Positions 2,711 through 43,785 of a stretch of DNA of 64,000 nucleotides are shown piece after piece; position 1 is the first letter of the stretch, and each line of letters starts with the position of its first letter. Made by a program: the position numbers and the translations under genes. Origin of the DNA: Mobula hypostoma (Eukaryota); the NCBI RefSeq assembly GCF_963921235.1, contig NC_086097.1, positions 62,374,001 to 62,438,000 of the forward strand, given 5' to 3'. The notes below the pieces were generated by a model. That model worked only from the letters and a program-made list of their open reading frames with translations. It was not told where the DNA came from and did not search any database.

Positions 2711-3727
2711 TGTAACAATCTGTTATATTGACTCGTGTATGTCTAGGGGAAATCCCGCCCAGCACCTGCTTCAACACTCCTCTCAGGGTCAGTCGCAGCC
2801 CGAATCAATCCCAAACGTCAATCATCAGCCAGCACACCTAGTAAATTTTAACAAATACACTTCATAGATATTACTAATTCTATGACATTAATATGAATTT
2901 GATACAGAGAGGAAAGTAATGAAAAAAAATGCGCCAACACTTATCAAAGTCCAAGTTCTTCGCGCGCTACCATTGGAGCTCAATCGATTCCGAACGACCA
3001 CCCGGATCCTGTCGACTCACGGCTCGGGACCACCCAGTGTGATCGACCGGAGCCTCTCCGCACGTCCGCTGTCCTCCCCGTCTCTCCTCCGACTCCCCGC
3101 CAAAAACCCCGTCCACCATCCTCCCCTTCTCTCCTCCGACTCCCCATCTCTCCTCCGACTCCTCCCAAAAACCCCGTCCACGGTCCTCTTCGTCTCTCCT
3201 CCAACTCCCCGTCTCTCCACCGACGCCCCCCAAAAACCCCGTCCACCGTCCTCCCCGTCTCTTCTCCGACTCCCCGCCAAAACCTCGTCCACTGTCCTCC
3301 CCGTCTCTCCTCCGACTCCCCGCCAAAACCCCGTCCACCGTCCTCCCCGTCTCTCCTCCGACTCCCCGCCAAAAGCCCCCGCACGTCTGCCGTCCTCCCC
3401 GTCTCTCCTCTGACTCCCCCCAAAAACCCCGTCCACCGTCCTCCTCGTCTCTCCTCCAACTCCCCCCAAAAACCCCGTCCACCATCCTCCCCGTCTCTCC
3501 TCCAACTCCCCGCCAAAACTCAATCCACAGTCGTATCATACAGCACGGTATCCGAAAACAAAACGATACATAACCACCCATTGGCTAATCGAACGCTGCT
3601 ATCTCACTTCAAAGTAATACAAACTGCTAGCGCAAACTCTCTTCAGTGTTTAACACAACAAAGCCGCATTCCCCAGATTAACATAAAGTCGCCATTTTAA
3701 CTCTAACAAAAAGAAAGACCCCGTACA
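2711..3727 (-). repeat. 3' LTR of the PNMA-like Gypsy element (1017 bp)
   Basis: Direct repeat of 6717-9025 outside the minisatellite, with TG...CA ends; preceded on the minus strand by the PPT. Confidence 0.95.
3062..3515. repeat. C/T-rich minisatellite inside the 3' LTR (core ~20-bp unit CCCCGTCTCTCCTCCGACTC)
   Basis: Visible tandem units interspersed with CCAAAAACCCCGTCCACCGTCCT. Confidence 0.9.
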
Positions 3728-3740
3728 CTCTCCCCCCACC
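3728..3740 (-). promoter_or_regulatory. Polypurine tract
   Basis: Minus strand reads GGTGGGGGGAGAG immediately before TGTACGG, the start of the 3' LTR. Confidence 0.85.
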
Positions 3741-3869
3741 ACAAAAAGTCATGCCCTCATGACGTTACCATAGTTCACCAGTGCTCTTTGTAAAACACAA
3801 AACCCAACCCAAGTGCATAAAGCAGTGACATAACTTTCCAGGGCAGTAGAGATCACACCCTGCTGTCCC

Positions 3870-4410
3870 AGCACTATATAAGTTAGTCTTTCCGGGGGAT
3901 GCCTACTCCTTTGAGTCCTCTGGACTTCCTCTGCTGACTCTCCCTGTTCAGACACCCCAGGTGACCCTCCACCCCCCCGGCCTATCTGACGAACCTTCCC
4001 CGTCACCGGGACCCCTGTGCCCCTGTGAACCCTCTGGCTCGGGTTCTGGCTCCACCCTCTCCTCTCCCAATTCCGGCTGTACTACACCCTCCCTCGGTTC
4101 CCCTAACTCAGTGATGGAAGGGCCAGGAGTCTCTTCTCCTGGCACTGAGGAATCAGCGAACGGAAGCAGGTACCACACGTCCGAATCATCATCTTCCGAT
4201 GACGTATCCCTTCTCGAGGTGGGGACCGGCCCCATCTCCTTCGCAGCAGGCTCTTCCCTCACCCCGCACCCTCGCAGAGTCCTCGTACTAGGCATAAACT
4301 CCCATTCGGGCTCTGGGTCCATCTTCACCTCTCGACCCAGAGGCAACAGGTGGTTCCGATGGAGTACCTTGACAGGCCCCTGCCCGTCCTCAGGTCTCAC
4401 CCGGTAAACC
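3870..4410 (-). pseudogene. pol: Gypsy integrase C-terminal remnant and acidic pol tail
   Basis: PVYRVRPEDGQGPVKVLHRNHLLPL, then an acidic low-complexity tail and a terminal QRTQRSRHPPERLTY motif typical of Gypsy pol ends. Confidence 0.8.
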
Positions 4411-4511
4411 GGGGAATCTGGGGGTCCCCATCACTAATGCCGCCTCCCCTGGCCGTATCACCTTAGGCCTGGCCTGAGTGCACCACACCGTCCCTCGTTT
4501 GCACTCAGGAT

Positions 4512-5060
4512 CTAGCCCCTGGGGTCACTCACTCCTTTGTACACCGCTCGGAACACGGGGTGTACTGAGAGGGTCTTCAGAAAGTTCTCCCCCGCCGCCT
4601 TCTTATAGGCTCCCAAGAGCCGTCGCGCCAGAGGGGAGTTAGTCCCCACTAGCAGGGCAGCACCACTGGTCTCCACCGGGTCCAGACAGACCAACACCAG
4701 CGTCTCAAAGGCTTCCGACACTCCCACATCTCCCTCTGAAAATTCCAATCTCACTGACAAGTATCCATCGTACGGGTAATCACCATCACTTATGCCCCAA
4801 ATCTCCAATGCGTTAAACGGAGTTACTGGCAAATGCTTCAGATATTTGTTGTAGAACAACCGGTACAGTAAGGTAACCTGCAATCCAGTGTCAAGGATGG
4901 CTTTCACAAAGATTCCCTCTATCCGTAGGGACACGCTGGAACGGGGTCCCACCAATCCATCAGGAATTTGGGCTTGTTCTTTCTGGGGTTCCATAGTGGG
5001 TTTCTGGGAACGTGTTCCTCCCAAGACTCCAGTCCGTTCCCTCACTGAGCCTCTCCTAAG
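4512..5060 (-). pseudogene. pol: Retropepsin-type aspartic protease, in the -1 frame relative to gag
   Basis: VSLRIEGIFVKAILDTGLQVTLL contains the catalytic DTG; downstream ALLVGTN. Ends at a TAG at 4512 shortly before the pol deletion. Confidence 0.9.
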
Positions 5061-5066
5061 TTTCCC
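5006..5066 (-). promoter_or_regulatory. Programmed -1 ribosomal frameshift signal (G GGA AAC plus predicted H-type pseudoknot)
   Basis: Slippery heptamer at 5066-5060 is in gag phase, followed by a 6-nt spacer. Stem 1 GAGGCUCAG/CUGGAGUCUU, stem 2 GGGAACG/CGUUCCC. A -1 slip enters the protease ORF. Confidence 0.8.
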
Positions 5067-6645
5067 GACACCTCTCCCTTCTTGGTGTCCCGGGGGCCCT
5101 CCCCCCTCGGAGCATCTCGTCTCTCACAATCCCTCGGCAAGTGGCCAGCTTCCCCACAGCGGTAGCACGCCCCCAGCCACTCACATTCCCGGCAGAAATG
5201 CCCCTCTCTCCCAGAGTTATAGCACCTACTACCCACCGCCTCTCTCCTCCCGATACGGCCCCCCGGGGACCCCTTGGATTTCTCTGATCTCACCCCGGCT
5301 ACCACCTCCTGAACCGCTGAAGACCGTCCCCAGGGGTCCGAGCCCCCTGGTCGGCCCGAAGCACTCTCCTCGGCCTGTACCTCTCGGATCAGCTGTCCGA
5401 ATGATGGAGGGGGGTTCCACTTAAATGACTGCCGTACACTCCAAGCCACCCTGTCATCCTCCCGGGAACCGCTACATATCTGGCTCATCCTTAACTCTGC
5501 CACTTCATCCGCCCTCACTACCCCTCGTCGCCGCAGCCCCGTAAGCTTCCCTTCCAGCCTGAAAGCATAGTCTGAGAGCTTTTCCCCTCTTCTCTGCCGA
5601 TCCGTTGAAACTCTGCTACATGTTGCAAGGGATCTCCTGACAGTCCAAACACTTCCTCCAAAGCGTCCAAACACTCCGATAGGGAAGCTGAAGGGCATTC
5701 CGCTCTCAAATCACGGACCACACGGGACGCCCCGCCCCTTAAGCTTTCCACCAATCGCTGTCTCTTTTCCTCATCCAAAACTGGCCACACCTCTAACAAC
5801 TGGGGAAGCCTTTTAGGACCGAGATTAGGAAAAACTTCTTCACACAGAGAGTGGTGAATCTGTGGAATTCTCTGCCACAGCAAACTGTTGAGGCCAGTTC
5901 ATTGGCTATGTTTAAGAGGGAGTTAGATATGGCCCTTGTGGCTACAGGGGTCAGGGGGTATGGAGGGAAGGCTGGGGCGGGGTTCTGAGTTGGATGATCA
6001 GCCATGATCATAATAAATGGCGGTGCAGGCTCGAAGGGCCGAATGGCCTACTCCTGCACCTATTTTCTATGTTTCTATGTTTCTATGTAACTGGGATGTA
6101 TCCTCAACCCAGGTCTCATATTCATCCTCCCCTTCCGGGGTGGGCCTGGCTCCCGAGAAAATTCTCAGCTTCGGACGGGGCCCCTCAACCCTTCTCGCCA
6201 GGGAGGTAATGGCAGCTGCTAACTCAGAGGTCTCAGCCCTAACTGGGGGACGGGGCCTGGCCAAGCCTTCCCACTCCACACCTCCAGCCCTGGCTACTGG
6301 CACCTTCCCTGGGGCCTCATCTAGCTCCTCCTCCGACACCTCCTCACTTTCGTCCTCCGGGAGGGTGTGGAGACCCCACGGCCCTGCCTCCCCCTGGACA
6401 TGGACTGTCGCTGGTAGTTCCAAAGTAATGACGTCGACACTCGTCCGCACCAACATCCAGCTGGACTCCAGTTCTTTCCCACACCTTCTAGCTATAAGTT
6501 CTACCTGCCCGATACCTTTAATCAGACTCAACCCTCGCACCAGTATATCTGCCGGAATGCGATAATCGACCCCACTTAACACGCACGCATGATTCACCGG
6601 TACCTCTACCAATTCACACCAATTTACAATCTTATCTCGATCCAT
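5042..6645 (-). pseudogene. gag: PNMA (paraneoplastic Ma)-like Gag with two zinc knuckles, interrupted by a CR1 insertion and one frameshift
   Basis: ATG at 6645: MDRDKIVNWC...; KLRIFSGARPTPEGEDEYETWVEDTSQL/LEVWPVLDEEKRQRLVESLRGGA; QRRGEKLSDYAFRLE; CYNSGREGHFCREC (degenerate) and CYRCGEAGHLPRDC. Frameshift near 5600. Confidence 0.9.
5805..6088 (+). mobile_element. Young CR1 3' end (284 bp) inserted in gag
   Basis: About 4 mismatches to 43500-43783. (TTTCTATG)n tail. Duplicated AACTGGG at 5798-5804 and 6089-6095. Confidence 0.95.
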
Positions 6646-6694
6646 CTTCACACCACTTAATGCGACGACTATTACAGCTTTACCGAAAATCCAA

Positions 6695-6714
6695 ATCCAG
6701 GACAGTAGCCCCCA
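6695..6714 (-). promoter_or_regulatory. Primer-binding site, tRNA-Pro-like
   Basis: Minus strand reads TGGGGGCTACTGTCCTGGAT 2 nt after the 5' LTR, against the canonical tRNA-Pro PBS TGGGGGCTCGTCCGGGAT. Confidence 0.7.
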
Positions 6715-6716
6715 CC

Positions 6717-9025
6717 TGTAACGTTCCGTTATATTGGCTCGTATATGTCTAGGGGAAATCCTGCCCAGCACCTGTCTCAACACTCCCCACAGGGTCAGTC
6801 GCCACCCGAATCAATCCCAAACATCAATCATCAGCCAGCGCACCCAGTAAATTTTAACAAGTACACTTTACAGATGTTACTAATTCTATGACAGTAATAT
6901 AAATTTGATGCAGAAAGGAAAGTAATGGAAAAAAACGGCGTCAACACTTATCAAAGTCCAAGTTCTTCGTGCGCTACCGTTGGAGCTCAATCGATTCCTG
7001 ATGACCACCCGGATCCTGTTGACTCACGGCTCAGGACCACCCAGAGCGATCGACCGGAGCCTCTCCGCACGTCCGCCATCCTCCTCGTCTCTCCTCCGAC
7101 TCGCCCCCAAAAACCCCCGTCCGCCATCCTCCTCATCTCTCCTCCGACTCCCCGTCAAAACCCCATCCACCGTCCTCCTCGTCTCTCCTCCGACTCCCCA
7201 CCAAAACCACGTCCACTGTCCTCCTCGTTTCTCCTCCAACTCCCCGTCTCTCCTCCGACTCCCCGTCTCTCCACCGTCCTCCTCGTCTCTCCTCCAGCTC
7301 CCTGTCTCTCCTCCGACCTCCTCGTCTCTCCTCCGACTCCCCGTCTCTCCTCCGACTCCCCGTCTCTCCACCGTCCTCCCCGTCTCTCCTCCAACTCTCC
7401 ATCTCTCCTCCTACTCCCCGTCTCTCCACCATCCCCCTTGTCTCTCCTCCGACTCCCCGACTCTCCTCCGACTCCCTGTCTCTCTTCCGACTCCCTGTAT
7501 CTCCACCGTCCTCCTCGTCTCTCCTCTGACTCCTCGTCTCTCCTCTGACTCCCCATCTCTCCTCCGACTCCCCCCCAAAAACCCTATCTACCGTCTTCCT
7601 CGTCTCTCCTCCAACTCCCCGTCTCTCCTCCGACTCCCTGTCTCTCCTCCGACTCCTCGTCTCTCCTCCAACTCCCCGTCTCTCCTCCGACTCCCTGTCT
7701 CTCCTCCGACTCCCCGTCTCTCCTCCGACTCCCCGTCTCTCCACCGTCCTCCTCGTCTCTCCTCCAGCTCCCTGTCTCTCCTCCGACCTCCTCGTCTCTC
7801 CTCCGACTCCCCGTCTCTCCTCCGACTCCCCGTCTCTCCACCGTCCTCCCCGTCTCTCCTCCAACTCTCCATCTCTCCTCCTACTCCCCGTCTCTCCACC
7901 ATCCCCCTTGTCTCTCCTCCGACTCCCCGACTCTCCTCCGACTCCCTGTCTCTCTTCCGACTCCCTGTATCTCCACCGTCCTCCTCGTCTCTCCTCTGAC
8001 TCCTCGTCTCTCCTCTGACTCCCCATCTCTCCTCCGACTCCCCCCCAAAAACCCTATCTACCGTCTTCCTCGTCTCTCCTCCAACTCCCCGTCTCTCCTC
8101 CGACTCCCTGTCTCTCCTCCGACTCCTCGTCTCTCCTCCAACTCCCCATCTCTCCTCCGACTCCCCCCCAAAAACCCCGTCCACCGTCCTCCTCGTCTCT
8201 CCTCCGACTCCCCGTCTCTCCTCCTACTCCCCGTGTCTCCACTGTCCTCCTCGTCTCTCCTCTGACTCCCCGTCTCTCCACCGTCCTCCTCGTCTCTCCT
8301 CTGACTCCCCGTCTCTCCTCCGACTCCCTGACTCTCCTCCGACTCTCTGTCTCTCCTCCGACTCCCTGTATCTCCACCGTCCTCCTCGTCTCTCCTCTGA
8401 CTCCTCGTCTCTCCTCTGACTCCCCATCTCTCCTCCGACTCCCCCCCAAAAACCCCGTCCACCGTCCTCGTCTCTCCTTCGACTCCCCGTCTCTCCACCG
8501 TCCTCCTCGTCTCTCCTCCGACTCCCCCCCAAAAACCCCATCCACCGTCCTCCTCGTCTCTCCTCCGACTCCCTGTCTCTCCCCCAACTCCCTGTCTCTC
8601 CTCCGACTCCTCGTCTCTCCTCCAACTCCCCATCTCTCCTCCGACTCCCCCCCAAAAACCCTGTCCACCGTCCTCCTCGTCTCTCCTCCAACTCCCCGTC
8701 TCTCCACCATCCTCCTCGTCTCTCCTCCGACTCCCCGTCTCTCCTCCAACTCCGTCTCTCCTCTGACTCCCTGTCTTTCCACCATCCTCCCTGTCTCTCC
8801 TCCGACTCCCACAGTCAATCCACAGTCATATCATACGGCATGGTATCCGTAAACAAAACGATACATAACCACCCATTGGCTAATAGAACGCTGCTATCTC
8901 ACTTTAAAGTAAAACAAACTGCTAGCACAAAATCTCTTCAACGTTTAACACAACAAAGCCGCATTCCCCAGATTAACCTAACAAAGTCGCCATTTTAACT
9001 CTAACAAAAAGAAAGACCCCGTACA
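6717..9025 (-). repeat. 5' LTR of the PNMA-like Gypsy element (2309 bp, expanded)
   Basis: Same unique flanks as 2711-3727; the extra length lies in the minisatellite. Confidence 0.95.
7068..8810. repeat. Expanded C/T-rich minisatellite (~1.75 kb) with a 470-bp higher-order duplication
   Basis: Tandem ~20-bp units; identical blocks are offset by 470 bp (for example 7552 and 8022). Confidence 0.92.
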
Positions 9026-9419
9026 CCTCCACTGCTTCATTGGGCAGAGAACTCCACAGATTCACTACTCTCTGGGAAAAGCAGTTCCTCCTCATCTCTG
9101 TCTTAAATCTACTCCCCCGAATATTGAGGTTATGTCCCTTAGTTCTAGTCTCACTTACCAGTGGAAATGACTTTCCTGCCTCAATCTTATCTATCTCTTT
9201 CATAATTTTACATCTTTCTATAAAATCTCCTCTCATTCTTCTGAATTCCAGTGAGTACAGTCCCAGGTGACTCAATCTCTCCTCATAATCTAACCCCCTC
9301 TAACCCCCTGTATGTATGTGTCTGTGTATGTATGTAGTGTGTGTGTGTCCCAAAGTAGCATATTGTGACATATATGTATGTACTTTTATAATAAATTTAT
9401 TTTGAATTTGATTTTCTCA

Positions 9420-12099: not shown

Positions 12100-13594
12100 G
12101 AAACATGGGACAACACAGCCGTTGAAAAACCTGAGGTGATTTATATTGGTTTTAAGGTAGCTGCTAATCGGATGAAGTCTGTTGAAGTCTGTGTTACCTT
12201 GGAAGGCAAGCATCCAGATTTTTTTTTTTCCCTTTCTATTATTCCATATTCTTTTCTGATCTGTGTGTTCTGATAAAACTATTACAGTAATTTTAAAAGG
12301 AACCTGAAATGGAGGTGGACTGATGAACAACAAAAATCATTTAATGCAGGGAGTGGAAAATTTCTGTGGTACTTTGATACCACGATAACCGTAAAACTAG
12401 CAAATGACAATGCTAGTCACTGAGGCAGAAACGGCACATAGAAGTTGTTTACGGCTTTATACAAAAGGGAGGAAATCATGCACAAATTAACAAAGAAATC
12501 TGCATAATCATTTTCATTGTGAAGAAATTGCACCAGTTCCTACTGGGAAAACCTCTCATTCTAATAACCAGCATAAAACGCTATTGCCAATCTTGGCTTC
12601 TGAAAAAGCATTTCCAACAATGTCAATTTACGGGGATTCAGAGATGTGCAGTTTTCTACTACAATATAATTATACTATTGAATGGTGTTTATCAATTCAA
12701 TATGTAATAGCTGATGCCTTGTCTAGATTACTGCATGAAACATCAGATATTGGTAGTGAAAATTCAATTTTCACACTGCAGGCTGCAGATAAAAATCTCC
12801 CAATAACTGCCATTGAGATTGCTTAGGTACTCAATAGGATGTAGCGCTGAAACATCTCTGTGAACAGTTTGAGCAAGCCTGGGCAAATGTCTAAATGAAA
12901 CATTATAGCCATTGCAAGGTTGAGTTATCAATTGAATAAGGATACTGTACTTGAAATGCAGATATCAAGTAGTCATTCCAAATATTCTGGAGTAAGGGAC
13001 GGCAGATGAGCTACACGTCAAAGACATTAGAATCACTAATATGATGGCCATTACCAGGAGTTTTACTTATTGACACAACATTATTAAAGCACTGATACAA
13101 AGTTGCATCCTTTATACAGCTTACCCTCTGGCAATGCTGGAAGAACCGAGCTCAACCATTCCAAGCTGTCTGTGTTAACCACTCCAAACGTTCTTGTGAT
13201 CCTTGCCAAACAATCAGTTGAAGTCTAACATGTAAGGAATGTGCTGTTGAAAAGTTGAGATGGATCATTATAATGCATGGAAAACTGGCAAAGTTACCGT
13301 CCAACCATGGTTCACAGTTTAGTTCACATTTATGTCACTGATTTATTCCACATAATTTTTCCAAATATTTACCAATTTTTAGATTTGTTTTACTTCAAGA
13401 ATTAATTTAAACTAACATACACTTCTCTATTACAACAAATGGGATCAGGTAAATTGGTTGAAAGCATGAAACATTTATTAATTTACATCTGGAATAAAGA
13501 GGTAACATTTAAAAAAGATTGACAAAGTCTGATCCTTGGATCCTCACACCTTTAGCCTCCCAGTGAGTACAACCAAGTTACTTTATTTTCTTGC

Positions 13595-15060
13595 TGAGCT
13601 TGTTGACTTCATTAACTTTGCCTCCAACTTTCACCCTGTCCTCAAATTTACCTGGTCCATTTCTGACATCTTTTTTGATCTTTCTGTCTCTATCTCTGGA
13701 GACAGTTTATCTACTGATGTCTACGATAAGCTTATGGACGGACTGTCTGGAGTATTCCTGGAGTATCTGGAGTATTCCTCTTCCCACCCTATCTCATGCA
13801 AAAATGCCATCCCCTTTTCTCAATTCCTCCGTTTCCACCACATCTGCTCTCAGGATGAGGCTTTTCATTCCAGGACGAAGGAGATGTCTTCTTTTTTTAA
13901 AGAAAGGGGCTTTCCTTCCTCCACCATCAGCTCTGCTCTCAAATGCATCTCCCCCATTTCACGCACATATGCTCTCACCCCTTCCTCCCGCCACCCCACT
14001 AGGAATAGGGTTCCCCTTGTCCTCACCTACCACCCCACCAGCCTCCGGGTCCAACATATAATTCTCCATAACTTCCGCCACCTCCAACGGGATCCCACTG
14101 CCAAACACATCTTTCCCCTCCCCCTTATTTCTGCTTTCTGCAGGGATCGCGCCCTAACGCAACTCCCTTGTCCATGCATCCCCCTTCATCCCTTCCCACT
14201 GATCTCCCTCCTGGCACTTATCCTTGCAAGCGGAACAACTGCTACACATGTCCTTACACTTCCTCCCTCACCACCATTCAGGGCCCCAGACAGTCCTCCC
14301 AGGTGAGGCGACACTTCACCTGTGAGTCGGCTGGGGTGATATACTGCGTCCGGTGCTCCCGGTGCGGGCTTCTATATATTGGCAAGACCCGATGCAGACT
14401 GGGAGATCGTTTCACTGAACACCTACGCTCTGTCTGCCAGAGAAAGCAGGATCTCCCAGTGGCCACACATTTTAATTCCATGTTCCATTCCCATTCTGAT
14501 ATGTCCACCCATGGCCTCCCCTACTGTCAGGATGAAGCCACACTCAGGTTGGAGGAACAGCACCTTATATTCCATCTGGGTAGCCTCCAACCTGATGGCA
14601 TGAATATTGACTTCTCTAACTTCCGCTAATGCCCCACCTCCCCTTCTACCCCATCCCTTATTTATTTATTGATTCCCCCCTTTCTTTCTCTCTCTTTTTT
14701 CTCCCTCTGTCCCTCTCACTATATCTTCTTCTGATGCCCCCCTCCCCCTTTCCTTCTCCCTAGGCCTCCCGTCCCATGATCCTCTCCCTTCTCCAGCCTT
14801 GTATCCCTTTTGCCAATCAACTTTCTAGCTCTTAGTTTCATCCCTCTGCCTCCTGTCTTCTCCTATCAGTTTGGATCTCCCACTCCCCCTCCCACTTTCA
14901 AATCTCTTACTACCTCTTCTTTCAGTTAGTCCTGACGAAGGGTCTCGGCCCAAAACATCGACTGTCCCTCTTCCTATAGATGCTGCCTGGCCTGCTGCAT
15001 TCCACCAGCATTTTGTGTGTTTTGCTTGTATTTCCAGCATCTGCAGATTTCCCCGTGTAT
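13595..15060 (+). mobile_element. Penelope-like element, 5'-truncated: RT C-terminus, GIY-YIG endonuclease and terminal repeat
   Basis: FASNFHPVLKFT..., YSSSHP..CKNAIPFSQFLR and TCESAGVIYCVRCSRCGLLYIGKTRCRLGDRFTEH (GIY-YIG), with frameshifts. 14-bp TSD CTTTATTTTCTTGC at 13581-13594 and 15066-15079. Confidence 0.93.
14928..14963 (+). ncRNA. Degenerate minimal hammerhead ribozyme in the Penelope terminal repeat
   Basis: AGTC-CTGACGA-A-GGG(TCTCGG)CCC-AAAA-C-ATC-GACT. Core GAAA and GUC read AAAA and AUC, both at former CpG sites. Confidence 0.7.
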
Positions 15061-18497: not shown

Positions 18498-21400
18498 TGT
18501 AATGTATGGATCTAGTTCTTTCAGAGCAAAGACTCCCCTTACCACTACTTATGGACTGATAACTTACCTATGTGCATTGATCTATTGTCTATGCATGCAC
18601 ATTAATCTGTTCTCTCTCTCTCTCTCTCTGCAACATGAATACACGAGTTAACCTCATCTCTCTGTGTGTGCCTTTATTTATTTGATATGTAGTTGTACAG
18701 ACACAACAAATTGGCGACAAGTACGGACCTGAATATCAGAGGTTATCAGCAATGGCACCCACAGTTACAGGATGACAGAATTTGGAGGAAGGATGAGAGA
18801 CAGTGAGAGGAAAGTTAATCAGTATGGAAAAAACTGTCACAGATGCTAACAAAGGGATGCAAGCGTGAGGAACTGCATAGTACAAAGTGAAGATACACAA
18901 CTAACAAAGCTAAAGTGAAAATAATGTGACAATAGCATTAGTCAGAAAAGTTGATGAATTTGATAGTGCTAATGTAGGTCAAGAGGGTTGAACTGTATTG
19001 TAATGCAAATGACATGGATGAGGAAAAGAAAAACCCCACACCTCTTAAATTAACACTCCACACTTCTTAACTTAATGGGTGCTAAAATGTATAGGTTTTT
19101 GTGCAACATATTAACTCCTGAAAAGGCAGCAAGCAAAATGTTCAACAAAATTGTTACAACTTTACAAAATCAATTGAGCCCTAAACTGCTGATAACAGCT
19201 GAGAGATTTAGATTTCACAAATGGAGCTAGTCAAAAGGTGAAAGCATTTCTGAATACATGCAGAACTATGCAAACTTTCCCAATACTCTGACTTTGGAGA
19301 TGCTAAAACCTACACAGGTGAAAAGAGTCCCACAAAGGCAAACTGAAAGTGAATGTGATGTATGGTGGCAAAACACAGCAGTTAGAGCTTTATGTGTTCA
19401 AAAGTGGAAGGACAGCACTTTTTGGATGTGAATGGTTGAGAAAATCCAACTAGACTAACACACAATCAAAGCTTCCAATGTGTCATCAACAGGCAACTGC
19501 AGCCGAGATGGTAGCACTAATCAGAGACCAAAACAGCTGCTTAATGTTAACAAGAAGGTGTTTGAGTAGGGTATTGGTAAACTCAAAGGCATGAAGGCCA
19601 GAATTGAACTGGATGAAGCAGCAACACTAAGATTTCATAACACATGTCCAGTGTCTTATGCACTACATCTAAAAGTGGATGCTGAACTTCAGAGTTCGGA
19701 GGTGTCTGGCATTCTCTTCAGGGTTGAGTGGAGTGATTGAGCCATGCCCATTGTCCTGGTGGTCAAGAAAGGGAAGGCTTGCGCTATTCGCATATGGGGG
19801 GATTTGAAAGTGAGCATCAACCCTGTGCTGTGTACTGTGCAGTATTCCCTGCCATGAACAGAAGACACTTTGGCATTTTTGGCAGGTGAGGAGAGGTTTT
19901 CAAAGATTGCCTTGTCACTAGCCTATCTGTAAATGGAAATTGAGAAGTCAAGCAGGAAGTTCCTCACAATCAACATTCACAAGGGACTGCTCCAGTATAA
20001 TCGTCTCATCTTTGGCGTCACATCAACTCCAGTAATTTAGCAGATAGCAATGGACCAAGTGCTCCAAGGTATACCAGGAACACAATGTTACCTTGATGAA
20101 TTCATCGTGACTAGCAAGAATGATGAAGAGCACCTCTGGAATCTTAGTAAGTGTTTCCTAGGCTGAGTGAGTATGGTCTGCATGCAAAGAGAGAGAAATG
20201 TGAGTGTTTCAAGAATGAAATCTCATATTGTGGACATGTCATGGACAAGTATGGCTTGCGTAAGTCACAAGAGAAGACTGAAAGAGTGCTACAGGCACCC
20301 AAACTGGAAGATGTGTCACAACTCAGGTCATACTTGGGACTTGTGATCTACTACCACAGGTTTCTCCCAAAGATTGCTACAGTAGTGCATCCATTGAATC
20401 CACTGTTACAGGTAGGAGCAAAGTGGGAATGGTCAGAAATATGTGAAAGAGCATTCAAGGAAACGAAAAGACTAATGACATCAGATGAACTGCTCAGATG
20501 TATGGCTCTATTTCTTTTAGAGCGCAATGGCTCCCATTAGCACTACATATAGTTTGTTGTCCACATATGTGTATTGATCTCTCTCTCTCCCTCTCTCTCT
20601 CTCTTTCTCTCTCGCTGCAATGTAAGTACACCAATTAAAGCCATCTCCTGTGAGCATGCATTTATTTAGTTGATCTGTAGTTGCACAGACACAACACCTT
20701 TATGATCCATCTTTGCCTTTCAGACTGGCATGCAACGCATCCCCTTATGGTATTGGTGCCATATTGTCACGCACTATGAAAGATGGATCTGAATGTCTGA
20801 TTGTGTTTGTTTCAAGATCACTGATGTGTGCAGAATGCAACTACACAGAAAGAGGCCCTTAGTCTAGCATGGGGAATAAAGAAGTTCCACCACTGCCTTT
20901 TGGACAAAAGTTTACTCTAGTGACAGACCACCAGATCCTAGTGTCCATTTTCAATCCCAGGAAGGGAATCCCAGTGATGACTGCTATCCGGTTGCAATGT
21001 TGGGCACTTTTCCTAGGAGCTCACTCTTATGACATAGAGTTCAAGGGTTCCAAACAACACGGCAATGCTGTCATCACTTCCACAGTTGGCAACTGAAAAA
21101 AAAATGTCTTCATGCTGTGACCCAACAGAGGTGTTTCACAAAGCATTGATGGACCAGGTGCCACTGCCAAATTCTGAAATACAAAGAGAAACAAGGAATG
21201 ACCTAACATTGTCAAAAGTCCATGACATCACCATGTAAGGATGGCTAACTCATGGGAACCTCATGTTTCCAGAGTTCTCAGTGAGATGAGACCAACTGTC
21301 AATGCCTCAAAGGATGCTGATGTGTGGCTCCTGTGTCATTGTTCCCTCTAAACTGCGCAACAGAGTGTTAGAGAATCTGCACGAAGGACACCTGGGTACA

Positions 21401-22837
21401 GTCAAGATGAAGAGTCTCACCCAGGGCTAAATCTGATGACTGGAAATAGATAGACAGATTGAAGATTTGGCCAAAAGCTGTTTGGGATGCTGCAAAGTTC
21501 AAAATGCACCACCACAGGCACCGTTACACCCATGGGAGTGGCCATCTTCACCATGGCAAAGAGTGCATATTGACGTTGCTAGGCCAGTTATGGACTCCAT
21601 GTTTCTGATTGCTGTGGATGCTCATTCAAAGAGACTGGAGAAGGTCATGGCAATGATGTCAATCACATTAGAAAAGACTGTTTCCATTCTGAGGACTATC
21701 TTCTCCAGAAATGGCTTGCCTGAACAAATTGTGAGTGAAAACAGACCACAATATACGTCAGAAGAGGTTAAACGATTCATTAAAAAAAATAGCATCAAAC
21801 ATTTCAAGTCTGCTGCTCATCGCACAGCGACGAAGGGGTTAGCTGTAAAGTATGTCCAAACTTTCAAGGTCTGTTAAAGTTATGGACAAAGAGGATATTT
21901 CTCTACAACACAAGGTGGACAGCTTCCTTCTTGTGTTTCAGAATTCTGTTCACACGACAACAAATCAAACACCAGCAATGCTGTTCATGTGCAGGAATCC
22001 TAGATTTCGCATAGACCCTCTGAAACCAGATCTATGGACGGAAGTGTAGAATAAACAGTCAACCAGTTGTCAAGTGAATCAACAAGGAGCTTTGAGATTG
22101 GACAGGAAGTCCTAGTGCGTGATTACTGAGAAGACAAGTGGACACCCAGTGGGATAGCTACAAGAACTGGACCACTGACGTACACAGTGGACATTGGAGA
22201 TCATACATGGAGATGTCACATGGTCCAGATACTGGATGCTCAGCTGAGGGATGCACATGAGTCGACTGTATCCATCAACACAGACAAATTACAGCCACTG
22301 GAATTACCTCTGAGTGATGATCATGTCACTAAACAGCAACATGACACCTGCAACAGAGAAAGTTGTCTTTGACAGGACACCGGCCAAACCTGATGCCACT
22401 CCACAGGTCCAGAGGAGCTATCCTGAAAGACATAGGGCACCACCTAAAAACCTGAATCTTTAGTATAGTGAAGTTAGCTATGGACTGTTACTGTAAAAGC
22501 ATGTTTGAATGTGGTTTGTTAGAGGGAAGTTAAATGTTTTGTTACATATATAGTTTTATATTATATTAATCTAAAGGGGGAGGAAATTTAATGTATGAAT
22601 CTATTTCATTTGGAGCAATGCCTCCCCTTAGCACTACTTATGGATTGATAACTTACCTATGTGTGTTCATCTGTTTTCTTTCTCTACCCCTGAACCCCTC
22701 TCCCCCTCTTTCCCTCTGTCCCTCTCTCCTTCTCCTCTCTCTTTCTCCCTCTCCCTCTCCCTTTCCTTCTCCCTCCCCCTCCTCCCTCCCTTGTGCATAC
22801 CTTTATTTAATTAATATGTAGTTGTACGGGCACAACA
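18498..22837 (+). mobile_element. Ty3/Gypsy (Mag-like) LTR retrotransposon, decayed gag-pol
   Basis: LTRs at 18498-18708 and 22587-22837. 5-bp TSD ATAAC at 18493-18497 and 22838-22842. PBS TGGCGAC at 18712; PPT AAAGGGGGAGGAAA before 22587. Gag ITAERFRFH, RT YLDE, RNase H ACNASPYGIGAIL, integrase PWEWPSSPWQRVHID. Confidence 0.93.
20497..20696 (+). repeat. Related LTR nested in pol of the Mag-like element
   Basis: gatgtatggctctatttc...(CT)n...tgtagttgcacagacacaaca resembles both flanking LTRs; it interrupts TSDELL/YDPSLP. Confidence 0.85.
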
Positions 22838-39878: not shown

Positions 39879-41007
39879 AGAGAAACATAGAAACATAGAA
39901 AATAGGTGCAGGAGTAGGCCATTCGGCCCTTCAAGCCTGCACCACCATTTATTATGATCATGGCTGATCATCCAACTCAGAACCCTGTACCAGCCTTCCC
40001 TCCATACCCCCTGATCCCCGTAGCCACAAGGGCCATATCTAACTCCCTCTTAAATATAGCCAATGAACTGGCCTCCACTGTTTCCTGTGACAGAGAATTC
40101 CACAGATTCACCACTCTCTGTGTGAAGAGGTTTTTCCTAATCTCAGTCCTAAAAGGCTTCCCCTTTATCCTCAAACTGTGACCCCTTGTTCTGGACTTCC
40201 CCAACATCAGGAACAATCTTTCTGCATCTAGCCAGTCCAATCCCTTTAGGATTTTATGCGTTTCAATCAGATCCCCCCTCAATCTTGTAAATTCCAACGA
40301 GTACAAGCCTAGTTCATCCAGTCTTTCTTCATATGAAAGTCCTGCCATCCCAGGAATCAATCTGGTGAACCTTCTTTGTATTCCCTCTATGGCAAGGATG
40401 TCTTTCCTCAGATTAGGGGACCAAAACTGCACACAATACTCCAGGTGTGGTCTCACCAAGGCCTTATACAACTGCAGTAGTACCTCCCTGCTCTTGTACT
40501 CGAATCCTCTCGCTATAAATGCCAGCATACCATTTGCCTTTTTCACCGCCTGCTGTACCTGCATGCCCACTTTCAATGACTGGTGTATAATGACACCCAG
40601 GTCTCGTTGCACCTCCCCTTTTCTTAATCGGCCACCATTCAGATAATAATCTGTTTTCCTGTTTTTGCCACCAAAGTTGATAACTTCATACTTATCCACA
40701 TTAAATTGCATCTGCCATGAATTTGCCCACTCACCCAACCTATCCAAGTCACCCTGCATCCTCTTAGCATCCTCCTCACAGCTAACACTGCCACCCAGCT
40801 TCGTGTCATCCGCAAACTTGGAGATGCTGCATTTAATTCCGTCATCCAAGCCATTAATATATATTGTAAACAACTGGGGTCCCAGCACTGAGCCTTGCGG
40901 TACCCCACTAGTCACTGCCTGCCATTCTGAAAAGGTCCCGTTTATTCCCACTCTTTGCTTCCTGTCTGCTAACCAATTCTCTATCCACATCAATACCTTA
41001 CCCCCAA
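39879..41007 (-). mobile_element. Young CR1, 5'-truncated, open frame from mid-RT to stop
   Basis: Uninterrupted IGGKVLMWIENW...KFADDTK...GIRGYGGKAGTGF*; tail (AGAAACAT)n on +. TACTG is duplicated at 39874-39878 and 41008-41012. Confidence 0.96.
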
Positions 41008-42075
41008 TACTGCTTAACAAGTTAAGAGCCCACGGTATTAAAGGAAAGATACTAGCATGACAGAAGATTGGCTGACTGGCAGGAGGCAAAATGTGGGAAT
41101 AAAGAGAGTCTTTTCTGGTTAAGCTGTTGGTGACTAGTGGTGTTCCGCAGGGTCCAGTTTTGGGTCCACTTCATTTTACGTTATATGTCAATGGTTTAGA
41201 TGATGGAATTAATGACTTTGTGGCCAAGTCTGTGGAGGAAACAAAGATAGTTGGGGAGGAAAGTAGTGTCATATTGGCAAGGATTCTGCAAAAGGACTTA
41301 GACAGATTAGGATAATGGAAAAGAAGTGGCAGATTGAATATAACGTATGATTTTACACGTTGGTTGGAGGAATAAAGGCATTGACTATTTTCTAAATCGG
41401 AAGAAAATGCAAACATACGAGGTACAAAGGGGCTTAGGAGTCCTTGTGCTGTATTCCTGCAAGGTTCTCTAAAGGTTAATTTGCGCTAAGTTGGTGGTGA
41501 GGATGGCAGATGCAACGTTAGCATTCATTTCAAGAGGAATGCTGAGGCTTGATCAGGCAGTTTTAGGCCCCTATTCTAGGAAAAGATGTGCTAGCTTTGC
41601 AGATAGTCCAGAGGAAATTCACAAGAATGATTCTGGGAACAAAGTGTATGAGGAGTATTTGATGGCTCTAGGCATGTATTCACTGGTTTTTAGAAGAATG
41701 AGGGGGGATCTCATTGAAACCATTCAAATATTAAAAAGCCTGGATAGAGTGGATATGGTGAGGATGTTTCCTATAGTGGGAGCATCTAGGACAAGAGGGC
41801 ACCACCTCAGAATCAACTGCCATCCATTTAGAACAGAGAGGAGGAGCAATTTCTTTAGCCTGTGGGTAGTGATCCTATAGAATTCTTTGGCACAGATGGC
41901 TGTGGAAGCTGAATCATTGGGTGTATTTAATGAAGAGGTCGGTTGGTTCCTGATTAGCATGGGCATCAAAGATTATGGGGAGAATGCAGGAGAATGGGGT
42001 TAACAGGGATAATAAATCAGACATGATGGAATGGCAGAGCTGACTCAATGGGCTGAATAACCTAATTCTTATCCT

Positions 42076-43683
42076 ATGTTTTATGGTCATATGGTTGAAA
42101 GGTTCAGAGGGTCCAGTGAGATGGAGGAACTGAGTGAAATACATGTTAGTAGGGAAGTGGTGTTAGGTAAATTGAAGGGTTTGAAGGCAGATAAATCCCC
42201 AGGGCCAGATGGTCTGCATCCTAGAGTGCTTAAGGAAGTAGCCCAAGAAATAGTGGATGCATTAGTGATAATTTTTCAAAACTCATCAGATTCTGGACTA
42301 GTTCCTGAGGATTGGAGGGTGGCTAATGTAACCCCAATTTTTAAAAAAGGAGGGAGAGAGAAACCGGGGAATTATAGACCGGTTAGCCTAACGTCGGTGG
42401 TGGGGAAACTGCTGGAGTCAGTTATCAAGGATGTGATAACAGCACATTTGGAAAGCGAAGAAATGATCGGACAAAGTCAGCATGGATTTGTGAAAGGAAA
42501 ATCATGTCTGACGAATCTCATAGAATTTTTTGAGGATGTAACTAGTAGAGTGGATAGGGGAGAACCAGTGGATGTGGTATATTTGGATTTTCAAAAGGCT
42601 TTTGACAAGGTCCCACATAGGAGATTAGTGTGCAAACTTAAAGCACACGGTATTGGGGGTAAGGTATTGGTGTGGGTGGAGAATTGGTTAGCAGACAGGA
42701 AGCAAAGAGTGGGAATAAACGGGACCTTTTCAGAATGGCAGGCGGTGACTAGTGGGGTACCGCAAGGCTCAGTGCTGGGACCCCAGTTGTTTACAATATA
42801 TATTAATGACTTGGATGAGGGAATTAAATGCAGCATCTCCAAGTTTGCGGATGACACGAAGCTTGGCGGCAGTGTTAGCTGTGAGGAGGATGCTAAGAGG
42901 ATGCAGGGTGACTTGGATAATTTGGGTGAGTGGGCAAACTCATGGCAGATGCAATTTAATGTGGATAAATGTGAAGTTATCCACTTTGGTGGCAAAAATA
43001 GGAAAACAGATTATTATCTGAATGGTGGCCGATTAGGAAAAGGGGAGGTGCAACGAGACCTGGGTGTCATTATACACCAGTCATTGAAAGTGGGCATGCA
43101 GGTACAGCAGGCGGTGAAAAAGGAGAATGGTATGCTGGCATTTATAGCGAGAGGATTCGAGTACAGGAGCAGGGAGGTACTACTGCAGTTGTACAAGGCC
43201 TTGGTGAGACCACACCTGGAGTATTGTGTGCAGTTTTGGTCCCCTAATCTGAGGAAAGACATCTTTGCCATAGAGGGAGTACAAAGAAGGTTCACTAGAT
43301 TGATTCCTGGGATGGCAGGACTTTCATATGAAGAAAGACTGGATGAACTGGGCTTGTACTCGTTGGAATTTAGAAGATTGAGGGGGGATCTGATTGAAAC
43401 GTATAAGATCCTAAAGGGATTGGACAGGCTAGATGCAGGAAGATTGTTCCCGATGTTGGGGAAGTCCAGAACGAGGGGTCACAGTTTGAGGATAGAGGGG
43501 AAGCCTTTTAGGACCGAGATTAGGAAAAACTTCTTCACACAGAGAGTGGTGAATCTGTGGAATTCTCTGCCACAGCAAACTGTTGAGGCCAGTTCATTGG
43601 CTATGTTTAAGAGGGAGTTAGATATGGCCCTTGTGGCTACAGGGGTTAGGGGGTATGGAAGGAAGGCTGGGGCGGGGTTCTGA
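42076..43683 (+). CDS. Open reading frame of a young 5'-truncated CR1 ORF2: intact RT domain, no endonuclease
   Basis: 535-aa frame with no stop: KSPGPDG, PGNYRPVSLTS, YLDFQKAFDKVPH, GVPQGSVLGP, KFADDTK. The first few codons come from the tail of the older CR1, so expression is doubtful. Confidence 0.85.
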   Translation: MFYGHMVERFRGSSEMEELSEIHVSREVVLGKLKGLKADKSPGPDGLHPRVLKEVAQEIVDALVIIFQNSSDSGLVPEDWRVANVTPIFKKGGREKPGNYRPVSLTSVVGKLLESVIKDVITAHLESEEMIGQSQHGFVKGKSCLTNLIEFFEDVTSRVDRGEPVDVVYLDFQKAFDKVPHRRLVCKLKAHGIGGKVLVWVENWLADRKQRVGINGTFSEWQAVTSGVPQGSVLGPQLFTIYINDLDEGIKCSISKFADDTKLGGSVSCEEDAKRMQGDLDNLGEWANSWQMQFNVDKCEVIHFGGKNRKTDYYLNGGRLGKGEVQRDLGVIIHQSLKVGMQVQQAVKKENGMLAFIARGFEYRSREVLLQLYKALVRPHLEYCVQFWSPNLRKDIFAIEGVQRRFTRLIPGMAGLSYEERLDELGLYSLEFRRLRGDLIETYKILKGLDRLDAGRLFPMLGKSRTRGHSLRIEGKPFRTEIRKNFFTQRVVNLWNSLPQQTVEASSLAMFKRELDMALVATGVRGYGRKAGAGF

Positions 43684-43785
43684 GTTGGATGATCAGCCAT
43701 GATCATAATAAATGGTGGTGCAGGCTCGAAGGGCTGAATGGCCTACTCCTGCACCTATTTTCTATGTTTCTATGTTTCTATGTTT
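42096..43785 (+). mobile_element. Young CR1 LINE copy
   Basis: Intact RT frame, 3' UTR hairpin GGCTGAATGGCC and (TTTCTATG)n tail; near-identical to 39879-41007 and 5805-6088. Confidence 0.97.

Follow-up and report, generated by a model that had tools for sequence, protein, structure and literature searches.

An internally deleted Gypsy element with a PNMA-type Gag and a -1 protease frame in the ray Mobula hypostoma

The closest described relatives of the element reported here are autonomous Gypsy retrotransposons of rays and teleosts, represented by P0001 (Hypanus sabinus LOC132390922) and by P0041 and P0052 (both Mobula birostris), in which a Gag with a PNMA N-terminal domain, a capsid domain and zinc knuckles is followed by an intact pol. 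The N-terminal domain is found in PNMA genes as well as in metaviruses that are still active in fish, amphibians and reptiles (PMC11011659). Mammalian PNMA genes have been assigned to the Barthez lineage of Gypsy and PEG10 to the chromoviruses, with the PNMA progenitor dated to the therian ancestor (PMC3670739, Table 1); a mammalian origin of PNMA is also given in PMC8321522, where conserved synteny and selection serve as criteria of co-option. Elements that kept the long terminal repeats (LTRs), primer site and purine tract and lost the replication enzymes include TR-GAG of plants (PMC4350172), Bik-2 of zebrafish (PMC12067270) and template-switch chimeras (PMC5131818). We analysed a stretch of 64,000 nt of the Mobula hypostoma genome (contig NC_086097.1, positions 62,374,001 to 62,438,000; called the window), which carries a Gypsy element on its minus strand at 2711-9025.

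We consider this element, with a probability of about 60%, to be an ordinary, decayed member of an autonomous PNMA-Gag (Barthez-type) Gypsy family that is abundant in rays, and to carry a deletion in pol whose junction is unique or present in few copies. As reverse transcriptase (RT) is deleted in the copy, the lineage name is based on the Gag, by comparison with Table 1 of PMC3670739 and the RBD-CA-NC metaviruses of PMC11011659. The copy shares with its autonomous relatives the three parts of the Gag, the point of crossover from gag to pol, a protease of 77-81% identity and an integrase tail of 62-82% identity. It differs from them in the deletion of RT, RNase H and the integrase core, in three frameshifts and in a CR1 insertion. 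All parts of the element described below lie on the minus strand unless stated otherwise.

The Gag is present in three pieces. The N-terminal part, with the PNMA-type N-terminal domain, starts at an ATG at 6645 (6089-6645) and is 79% identical to P0029; the middle part (5597-5801) contains the PNMA capsid domain and ends at a frameshift near 5597; the C-terminal part (5042-5596) contains the end of the capsid domain and two zinc knuckles (5126-5224). These natural pieces were scanned one by one against Pfam and against solved structures. Pfam PNMA was found on two of them (E=7.9e-17 for PF14893 on the middle piece, and E=3.4e-07). PNMA2 was the best solved-structure match of the middle piece (E=5.4e-09), and full-length PNMA2 was the sole one of the N-terminal piece (E=9.3e-05 over residues 7-183). 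In addition, an alignment with PNMA2 over residues 7-333 (E=2.2e-24) was obtained for P0029, a close relative from rays. Atlas matches at 0.75-0.78 served as leads. Because its pieces match both Pfam PNMA and the PNMA2 structure, the Gag is, as judged from these comparisons, of the PNMA type with the N-terminal domain included, in agreement with an earlier reading made from the sequence only (the sequence-only reading). The zinc knuckles named there are both present, but only the second matches zf-CCHC in Pfam, the first being degenerate and without one zinc ligand. Four ray gene models (P0037, P0029, P0038 and P0054) hold pieces of this Gypsy family and bear names such as 'aggrecan core protein-like', 'paraneoplastic antigen Ma3-like' and 'modulator of apoptosis 1-like'; gene-model names of this kind should not be taken as indicating PNMA orthologues.

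The slippery heptamer GGGAAAC (5060-5066) lies a few codons before the gag stop. Its codon phase in gag, G GGA AAC, is that of an X XXY YYZ signal, and it leads into a protease frame at -1 relative to gag (4524-5059). This frame contains the DTG motif of an aspartic protease at 4884-4892 and has no in-frame stop; the frameshifted DTG protease first noticed from the sequence is confirmed. Two hairpins were predicted in the 80 nt after the heptamer (-18.4 kcal/mol, a value obtained without a shuffle control or a pseudoknot model). The database model of the autonomous relative P0001 passes from Gag to Pol at the same point, which makes the slip signal a feature of the parent family. From the site and its phase, this family is predicted to make Gag and, by a -1 slip at GGGAAAC, Gag-Pol. 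The same heptamer is reported for PEG10, PNMA3, PNMA5 and Rtl3 (PMC11299033).

The protease is 81% identical to that of P0041 and 77% identical to that of P0001, which carries RT, RNase H and integrase. In a protease tree of 47 rows (8 of the 54 proteins were left out for short or no overlap) the copy pairs with P0041 with a support of 98/89. Pfam assigned no family to the frame and the comparison with solved structures gave only matches with E>=0.26; the identification as a protease follows from the DTG motif, the position and the relatives. A search for relatives of the protease in metagenome and viral contigs found none, in collections that hold no members of the Gypsy family and are uninformative on this point.

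Behind the protease, pol is cut off by a frameshift near 4520 and continues as a spacer (4402-4518; 90-92% identity to P0041 and P0001), which runs for about 39 codons to 4402. Homology to the integrase tail starts at 4412-4421, confirming the direct jump of pol to the integrase C-terminus that had been proposed. The retained C-terminal region of the integrase (3972-4413) is 82% identical to P0052 and 62-63% identical to P0053 and P0054. The distal integrase/Pol tail (3752-3975), out of frame with the preceding part after a frameshift near 3975, is 76-85% identical to P0052 in a second frame. The order protease-RT-RNase H-integrase was read from P0001 and P0052; of these parts the copy retains the first and the last, arranged in the same way. 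Missing are RT, RNase H and the zinc finger and core of the integrase, about 1046 codons or 3.1 kb; this size is the median (1046 residues) of the distance between the two break motifs in 19 full-length Pol records.

To locate the break, contigs of four runs (X1, X5, X7 and X18, among 24 listed, none of them on record as an RNA run) were compared with positions 3730-5790 at 85% likeness. The family was deeply covered in all four runs, although depth gives no copy number. Loose contig ends were found at the junction. In three runs (X1, X5 and X18) contigs match the copy down to 4401-4402 and continue into ordinary pol; in three (X1, X7 and X18) they match up to 4412-4413 and continue into ordinary integrase. 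The segment 4402-4413 is thus present at both breakpoints of full-length elements and forms a 12-nt direct repeat (11 nt in X7). The reading frame is not kept across it, and the pol frame ends at a stop a few codons further on. The CCGG repeat that the sequence-only reading had placed at the junction is therefore part of a longer one. An identity of 12 nt at a random break has a probability of about 1e-6, and such a repeat pair is expected 0.8 times in 4.5 kb of pol; the break lies where it does because the repeat lies there.

A 12-nt repeat occurring by chance just after the protease and in the integrase tail would thus have let about 3.1 kb drop out. The most likely route would be a slip of the reverse transcriptase on its template in the round that made the copy, with enzymes provided by an intact element. 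Microhomology-guided repair after insertion is an alternative route, which would leave the same scar and is indistinguishable from the first here. With both LTRs, the primer site and the purine tract still in place, the product would have inserted into a CR1 relic. There it would have decayed in the absence of selection, gaining substitutions and three frameshifts and receiving a CR1 insertion, while the minisatellite of one LTR grew. Retroviral RTs are documented to delete sequence between direct repeats by switching template, in cases with much longer repeats (PMC3187697), and template switches at short identities, like the one at this junction, are described in animal LTR elements (PMC5131818). 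Since a break guided by a repeat could recur, equal breakpoints alone would be no proof of a subfamily.

The copy is long dead, as had been concluded from the sequence: its LTRs have diverged, it has three frameshifts and it carries a younger CR1 insertion. Outside the minisatellite described below, the LTRs differ in 47 of 561 columns (8.4%; 17 of the 47 are CpG-context transitions), so that the insertion is old. The sequence-only reading had recorded the frameshift in gag (as near 5600) but overlooked the one near 4520, just after the protease, and the one near 3975 in the integrase tail. Gag is further interrupted by a young CR1 3'-end fragment in the plus orientation (5802-6088), with a 7-bp target duplication (5798-5804 and 6089-6095). 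It is 98.6% identical to a CR1 end at 43497-43783, and therefore much younger than the Gypsy element, and 95.1% identical to 39881-40163. Young CR1 copies of the long interspersed nuclear element class are present in the window at 42061-43783 and 39881-41170, with a 540-codon RT frame (PF00078, E=1.6e-34).

Several results bear on the question of whether the deletion was a single event or marks a subfamily. No piece bridging the junction was found among the 32 listed of 3913 pieces, and the longest X18 piece at the junction (425 nt, depth 55.8) passes unbroken into full-length integrase. Seven other internal deletions were seen, each in one contig of one run. Among 202 proteins, 31 have both the protease and the integrase tail, and all 31 have RT in between. 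P0054, in which a PNMA Gag is joined to late pol without RT, was considered as a carrier of the junction, as were P0029 and P0038; their breaks differ and may be splicing predictions, and they were not counted. Four X18 pieces differ from the copy by 4.0-5.1%, which matches the 4.2% predicted by half the LTR divergence; a deleted lineage can thus hardly have had a long history of its own. These indirect data lean towards a one-off or low-copy event. The best word share of the locus in any run was 0.33, and no run clearly contains this very locus.

The substitutions in the copy were compared with its relatives, in whose records the frame runs through the site of the gag break (X1, X5 and X7) and that of the break near 4520 (X5, X7 and X18; none listed for X1). 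Of 291 variant rows 40 were listed, from which 22 in-frame near-fixed rows were classed, one of them below the cut-off; the near-fixed row 3787 was left out. In gag and protease, each of the 14 near-private changes replaces an amino acid; in the spacer and tail, 5 of 7 do so. The amino-acid changes show decay at conserved sites. By depth arithmetic, one X1 record (depth about 7) seemingly shares the letters of the copy at 4577, 4598, 4606 and 4627, which hints at an orthologous locus or at a sister copy; the protease changes would be unselected in both cases.

Some points weigh against a one-off, unselected copy. Records that simply match the junction are not shown as joints, so that the search among the pieces gave no copy count. 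The junction peptides of the copy were absent from all 202 proteins, a weak test, as an out-of-frame junction is hidden in protein sets. Three further X18 pieces differ from the copy by 6.5-8.7%, two of them significantly above the half-LTR figure. A copy met at random is more likely to come from a large subfamily than to be a single one. The count of 14 in 14 is biased to constrained, near-invariant sites and is not a ratio of nonsynonymous to synonymous substitution rates. Finally, the 603 codons of gag and protease contain no stop, against an expectation of 2.6 (P=0.07).

The alternative that survives best is a passive non-autonomous subfamily: the deletion would have arisen once and the short RNA would have been copied to many sites by the proteins of the intact family, with gag and protease as unselected passengers, carried along since the break chanced to lie behind them. 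This we regard as rather unlikely. All cis parts for mobilisation (LTRs, putative primer site and purine tract) are retained in the copy, the deep coverage of the family (which is no copy number) is compatible with it, and deleted or chimeric LTR elements can undergo further rounds (PMC5131818). A second recurring break points the same way: at 4379, 23-34 nt from the junction of the copy, loose ends in three of the four runs (X5, X7 and X18) join other sequence to the same integrase tail. The absence of a bridging piece and the unbroken X18 piece argue against the passive subfamily. The exact 27-nt junction pattern also had no match in metagenome contigs, a collection without any relative of the family and thus uninformative. 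The break at 4379 may belong to another derivative family or to a diverged subfamily, and a tail that is retained repeatedly could point to a cis signal. In run X18 (organism C) a different internal deletion of 1538 nt (4104-5643) was observed at a depth of 25.8, similar to that of neighbouring family contigs; this is possibly a multi-copy derivative. The 12-nt junction is a clean marker for the question of a subfamily.

The sequence-only reading had gone further and proposed a non-autonomous family that still supplied its own capsid and protease. In its explicit form this would be a multi-copy, pol-less PNMA-type subfamily in rays that makes capsid and a short Gag-protease product, with purifying selection acting on Gag, -1 slip and protease while it spread, and with its own Gag favouring the packaging of its RNA. 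We consider this unlikely. The slip site is intact and in phase, a neat Gag-protease product would result from the stop that closes the pol frame a few codons after the junction, the lack of stops in the 603 codons fits, and non-autonomous families that keep Gag are known (zebrafish Bik-2, plant TR-GAG). However, no intact copy was seen; gag contains a frameshift, another directly follows the protease, and sites that are near-invariant in the family carry at least 14 amino-acid changes. The four protease changes that the X1 record seemingly shares are what a dead orthologous locus, or a master copy not under selection, would show. The copy has the Gag and protease of its autonomous parent, and the break falls at a chance repeat. 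A helper particle must supply Gag-Pol, protease included, and a retained protease therefore needs no selective explanation. On these grounds the proposal that capsid and protease were kept under selection was not upheld.

If such a selected subfamily did exist, it would show that an element can by itself maintain the reduced layout before the host benefits. Rays would then offer a living vertebrate example of the state, gag plus protease, that mammals have frozen in PEG10/RTL3-like genes, and the integrase tail, repeatedly retained, would be the mark of a packaging signal. Comparison with described non-autonomous families shows differences as well. TR-GAG elements were selected as having no protease and at least two copies (PMC4350172), whereas the copy described here keeps its protease. 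Bik-2 is an endogenous retrovirus with 393 insertions, among them copies with an intact Gag (PMC12067270), whereas none was seen intact here. No gag-plus-protease non-autonomous Gypsy family in cartilaginous fish was found in the literature searched, Repbase and most subscription papers being outside the search.

The last suggestion, a domestication intermediate, meaning a capsid-protease gene on its way to serving the host, or a step towards PNMA or PEG10, is very improbable: the homology to PNMA2 over the N-terminal and capsid domains is real and the heptamer is that of PNMA3, PNMA5 and PEG10, but the Gag is split by the CR1 insertion and a frameshift with no intact reading frame left, PNMA co-option is dated to therian mammals (PMC3670739, PMC8321522, PMC11011659), PEG10 comes from another Gypsy lineage than PNMA, metaviruses with this Gag architecture are still active, and neither the synteny nor the selection by which co-option is recognised in PMC8321522 was seen at this locus. 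Mammalian PNMA genes (PNMA2, PNMA3, PNMA5 and MOAP1) have a homologous Gag and, in PNMA3 and PNMA5, the GGGAAAC slip site, but they are fixed and under selection, and in PMC11011659 no functional domain was found after the slip of PNMA3 and PNMA5, where nothing protease-like follows. The copy, in contrast, is an LTR-flanked decayed insertion in a cartilaginous fish. As no mammalian PNMA gene combines a PNMA Gag with a protease, the ray insertion would be at most an analogue. PEG10 and RTL3 do share the layout of Gag, GGGAAAC slip and protease, but derive from sushi/chromovirus Gypsy elements and are conserved under purifying selection; the likeness of the copy to them stems from the position of the deletion.

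Internal deletions are common in LTR elements, and PNMA-type Gypsy elements have already been described in fish, amphibians and reptiles (PMC11011659); the copy as such matters little. The parent family is of some interest, since it has the GGGAAAC slip site of PNMA3 and PNMA5 with a real protease behind it, which fits inheritance of the signal from a metaviral ancestor.

The boundaries of the element proposed earlier were confirmed. The 3' LTR (2711-3727, 1017 bp) and the 5' LTR (6717-9025, 2309 bp) both have exact TG...CA ends, and the element is flanked by a 4-bp target-site duplication, CCTC, at 2707-2710 on the left and 9026-9029 on the right. The polypurine tract (3728-3740, 12 of 13 purines) abuts the 3' LTR. 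The LTRs contain a C-rich minisatellite with 19- and 46-bp units, present as a short block in the 3' LTR (about 3058-3519) and extended in the 5' LTR (7070-8810), there with 19-bp units and a 470-bp higher-order repeat. Its growth to about 1.7 kb in the 5' LTR explains the unequal LTR lengths. Adjacent copies of the 470-bp repeat match up to 99%, and the expansion therefore took place long after insertion.

The putative primer-binding site (6695-6716) directly follows the 5' LTR and was called by position only. This candidate site may resemble a proline-tRNA site. A tRNA scan and an Rfam scan of the window gave no matches. Self-priming of the element was considered and found no support, as the longest perfect complement of the candidate primer site inside the LTR is 8 nt; the predicted fold does pair part of U5 with the primer region.

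The element was inserted into an old CR1-type relic, the two halves of which form the host flanks. The right flank matches four other copies of this relic starting at its first base, and the left 76 nt match the sequence upstream of these four copies at 49, 50, 50 and 55 positions (at 300 random control sites the 95th percentile was 32 and the maximum 53). An assembly artefact is very unlikely, as the target duplication and the contiguous host flanks hold.

Two further relics were observed elsewhere in the window. At 20151-21874 lies the relic of a second, unrelated Gypsy-like element, with a 32% match to the RT/RNase H of P0001 at 20151-20495 and an integrase-core match at 21440-21874. Frames at 13533-14626 have a weak GIY-YIG match (E=0.002, below the Pfam cut-off), which is suggestive of a Penelope-like relic.

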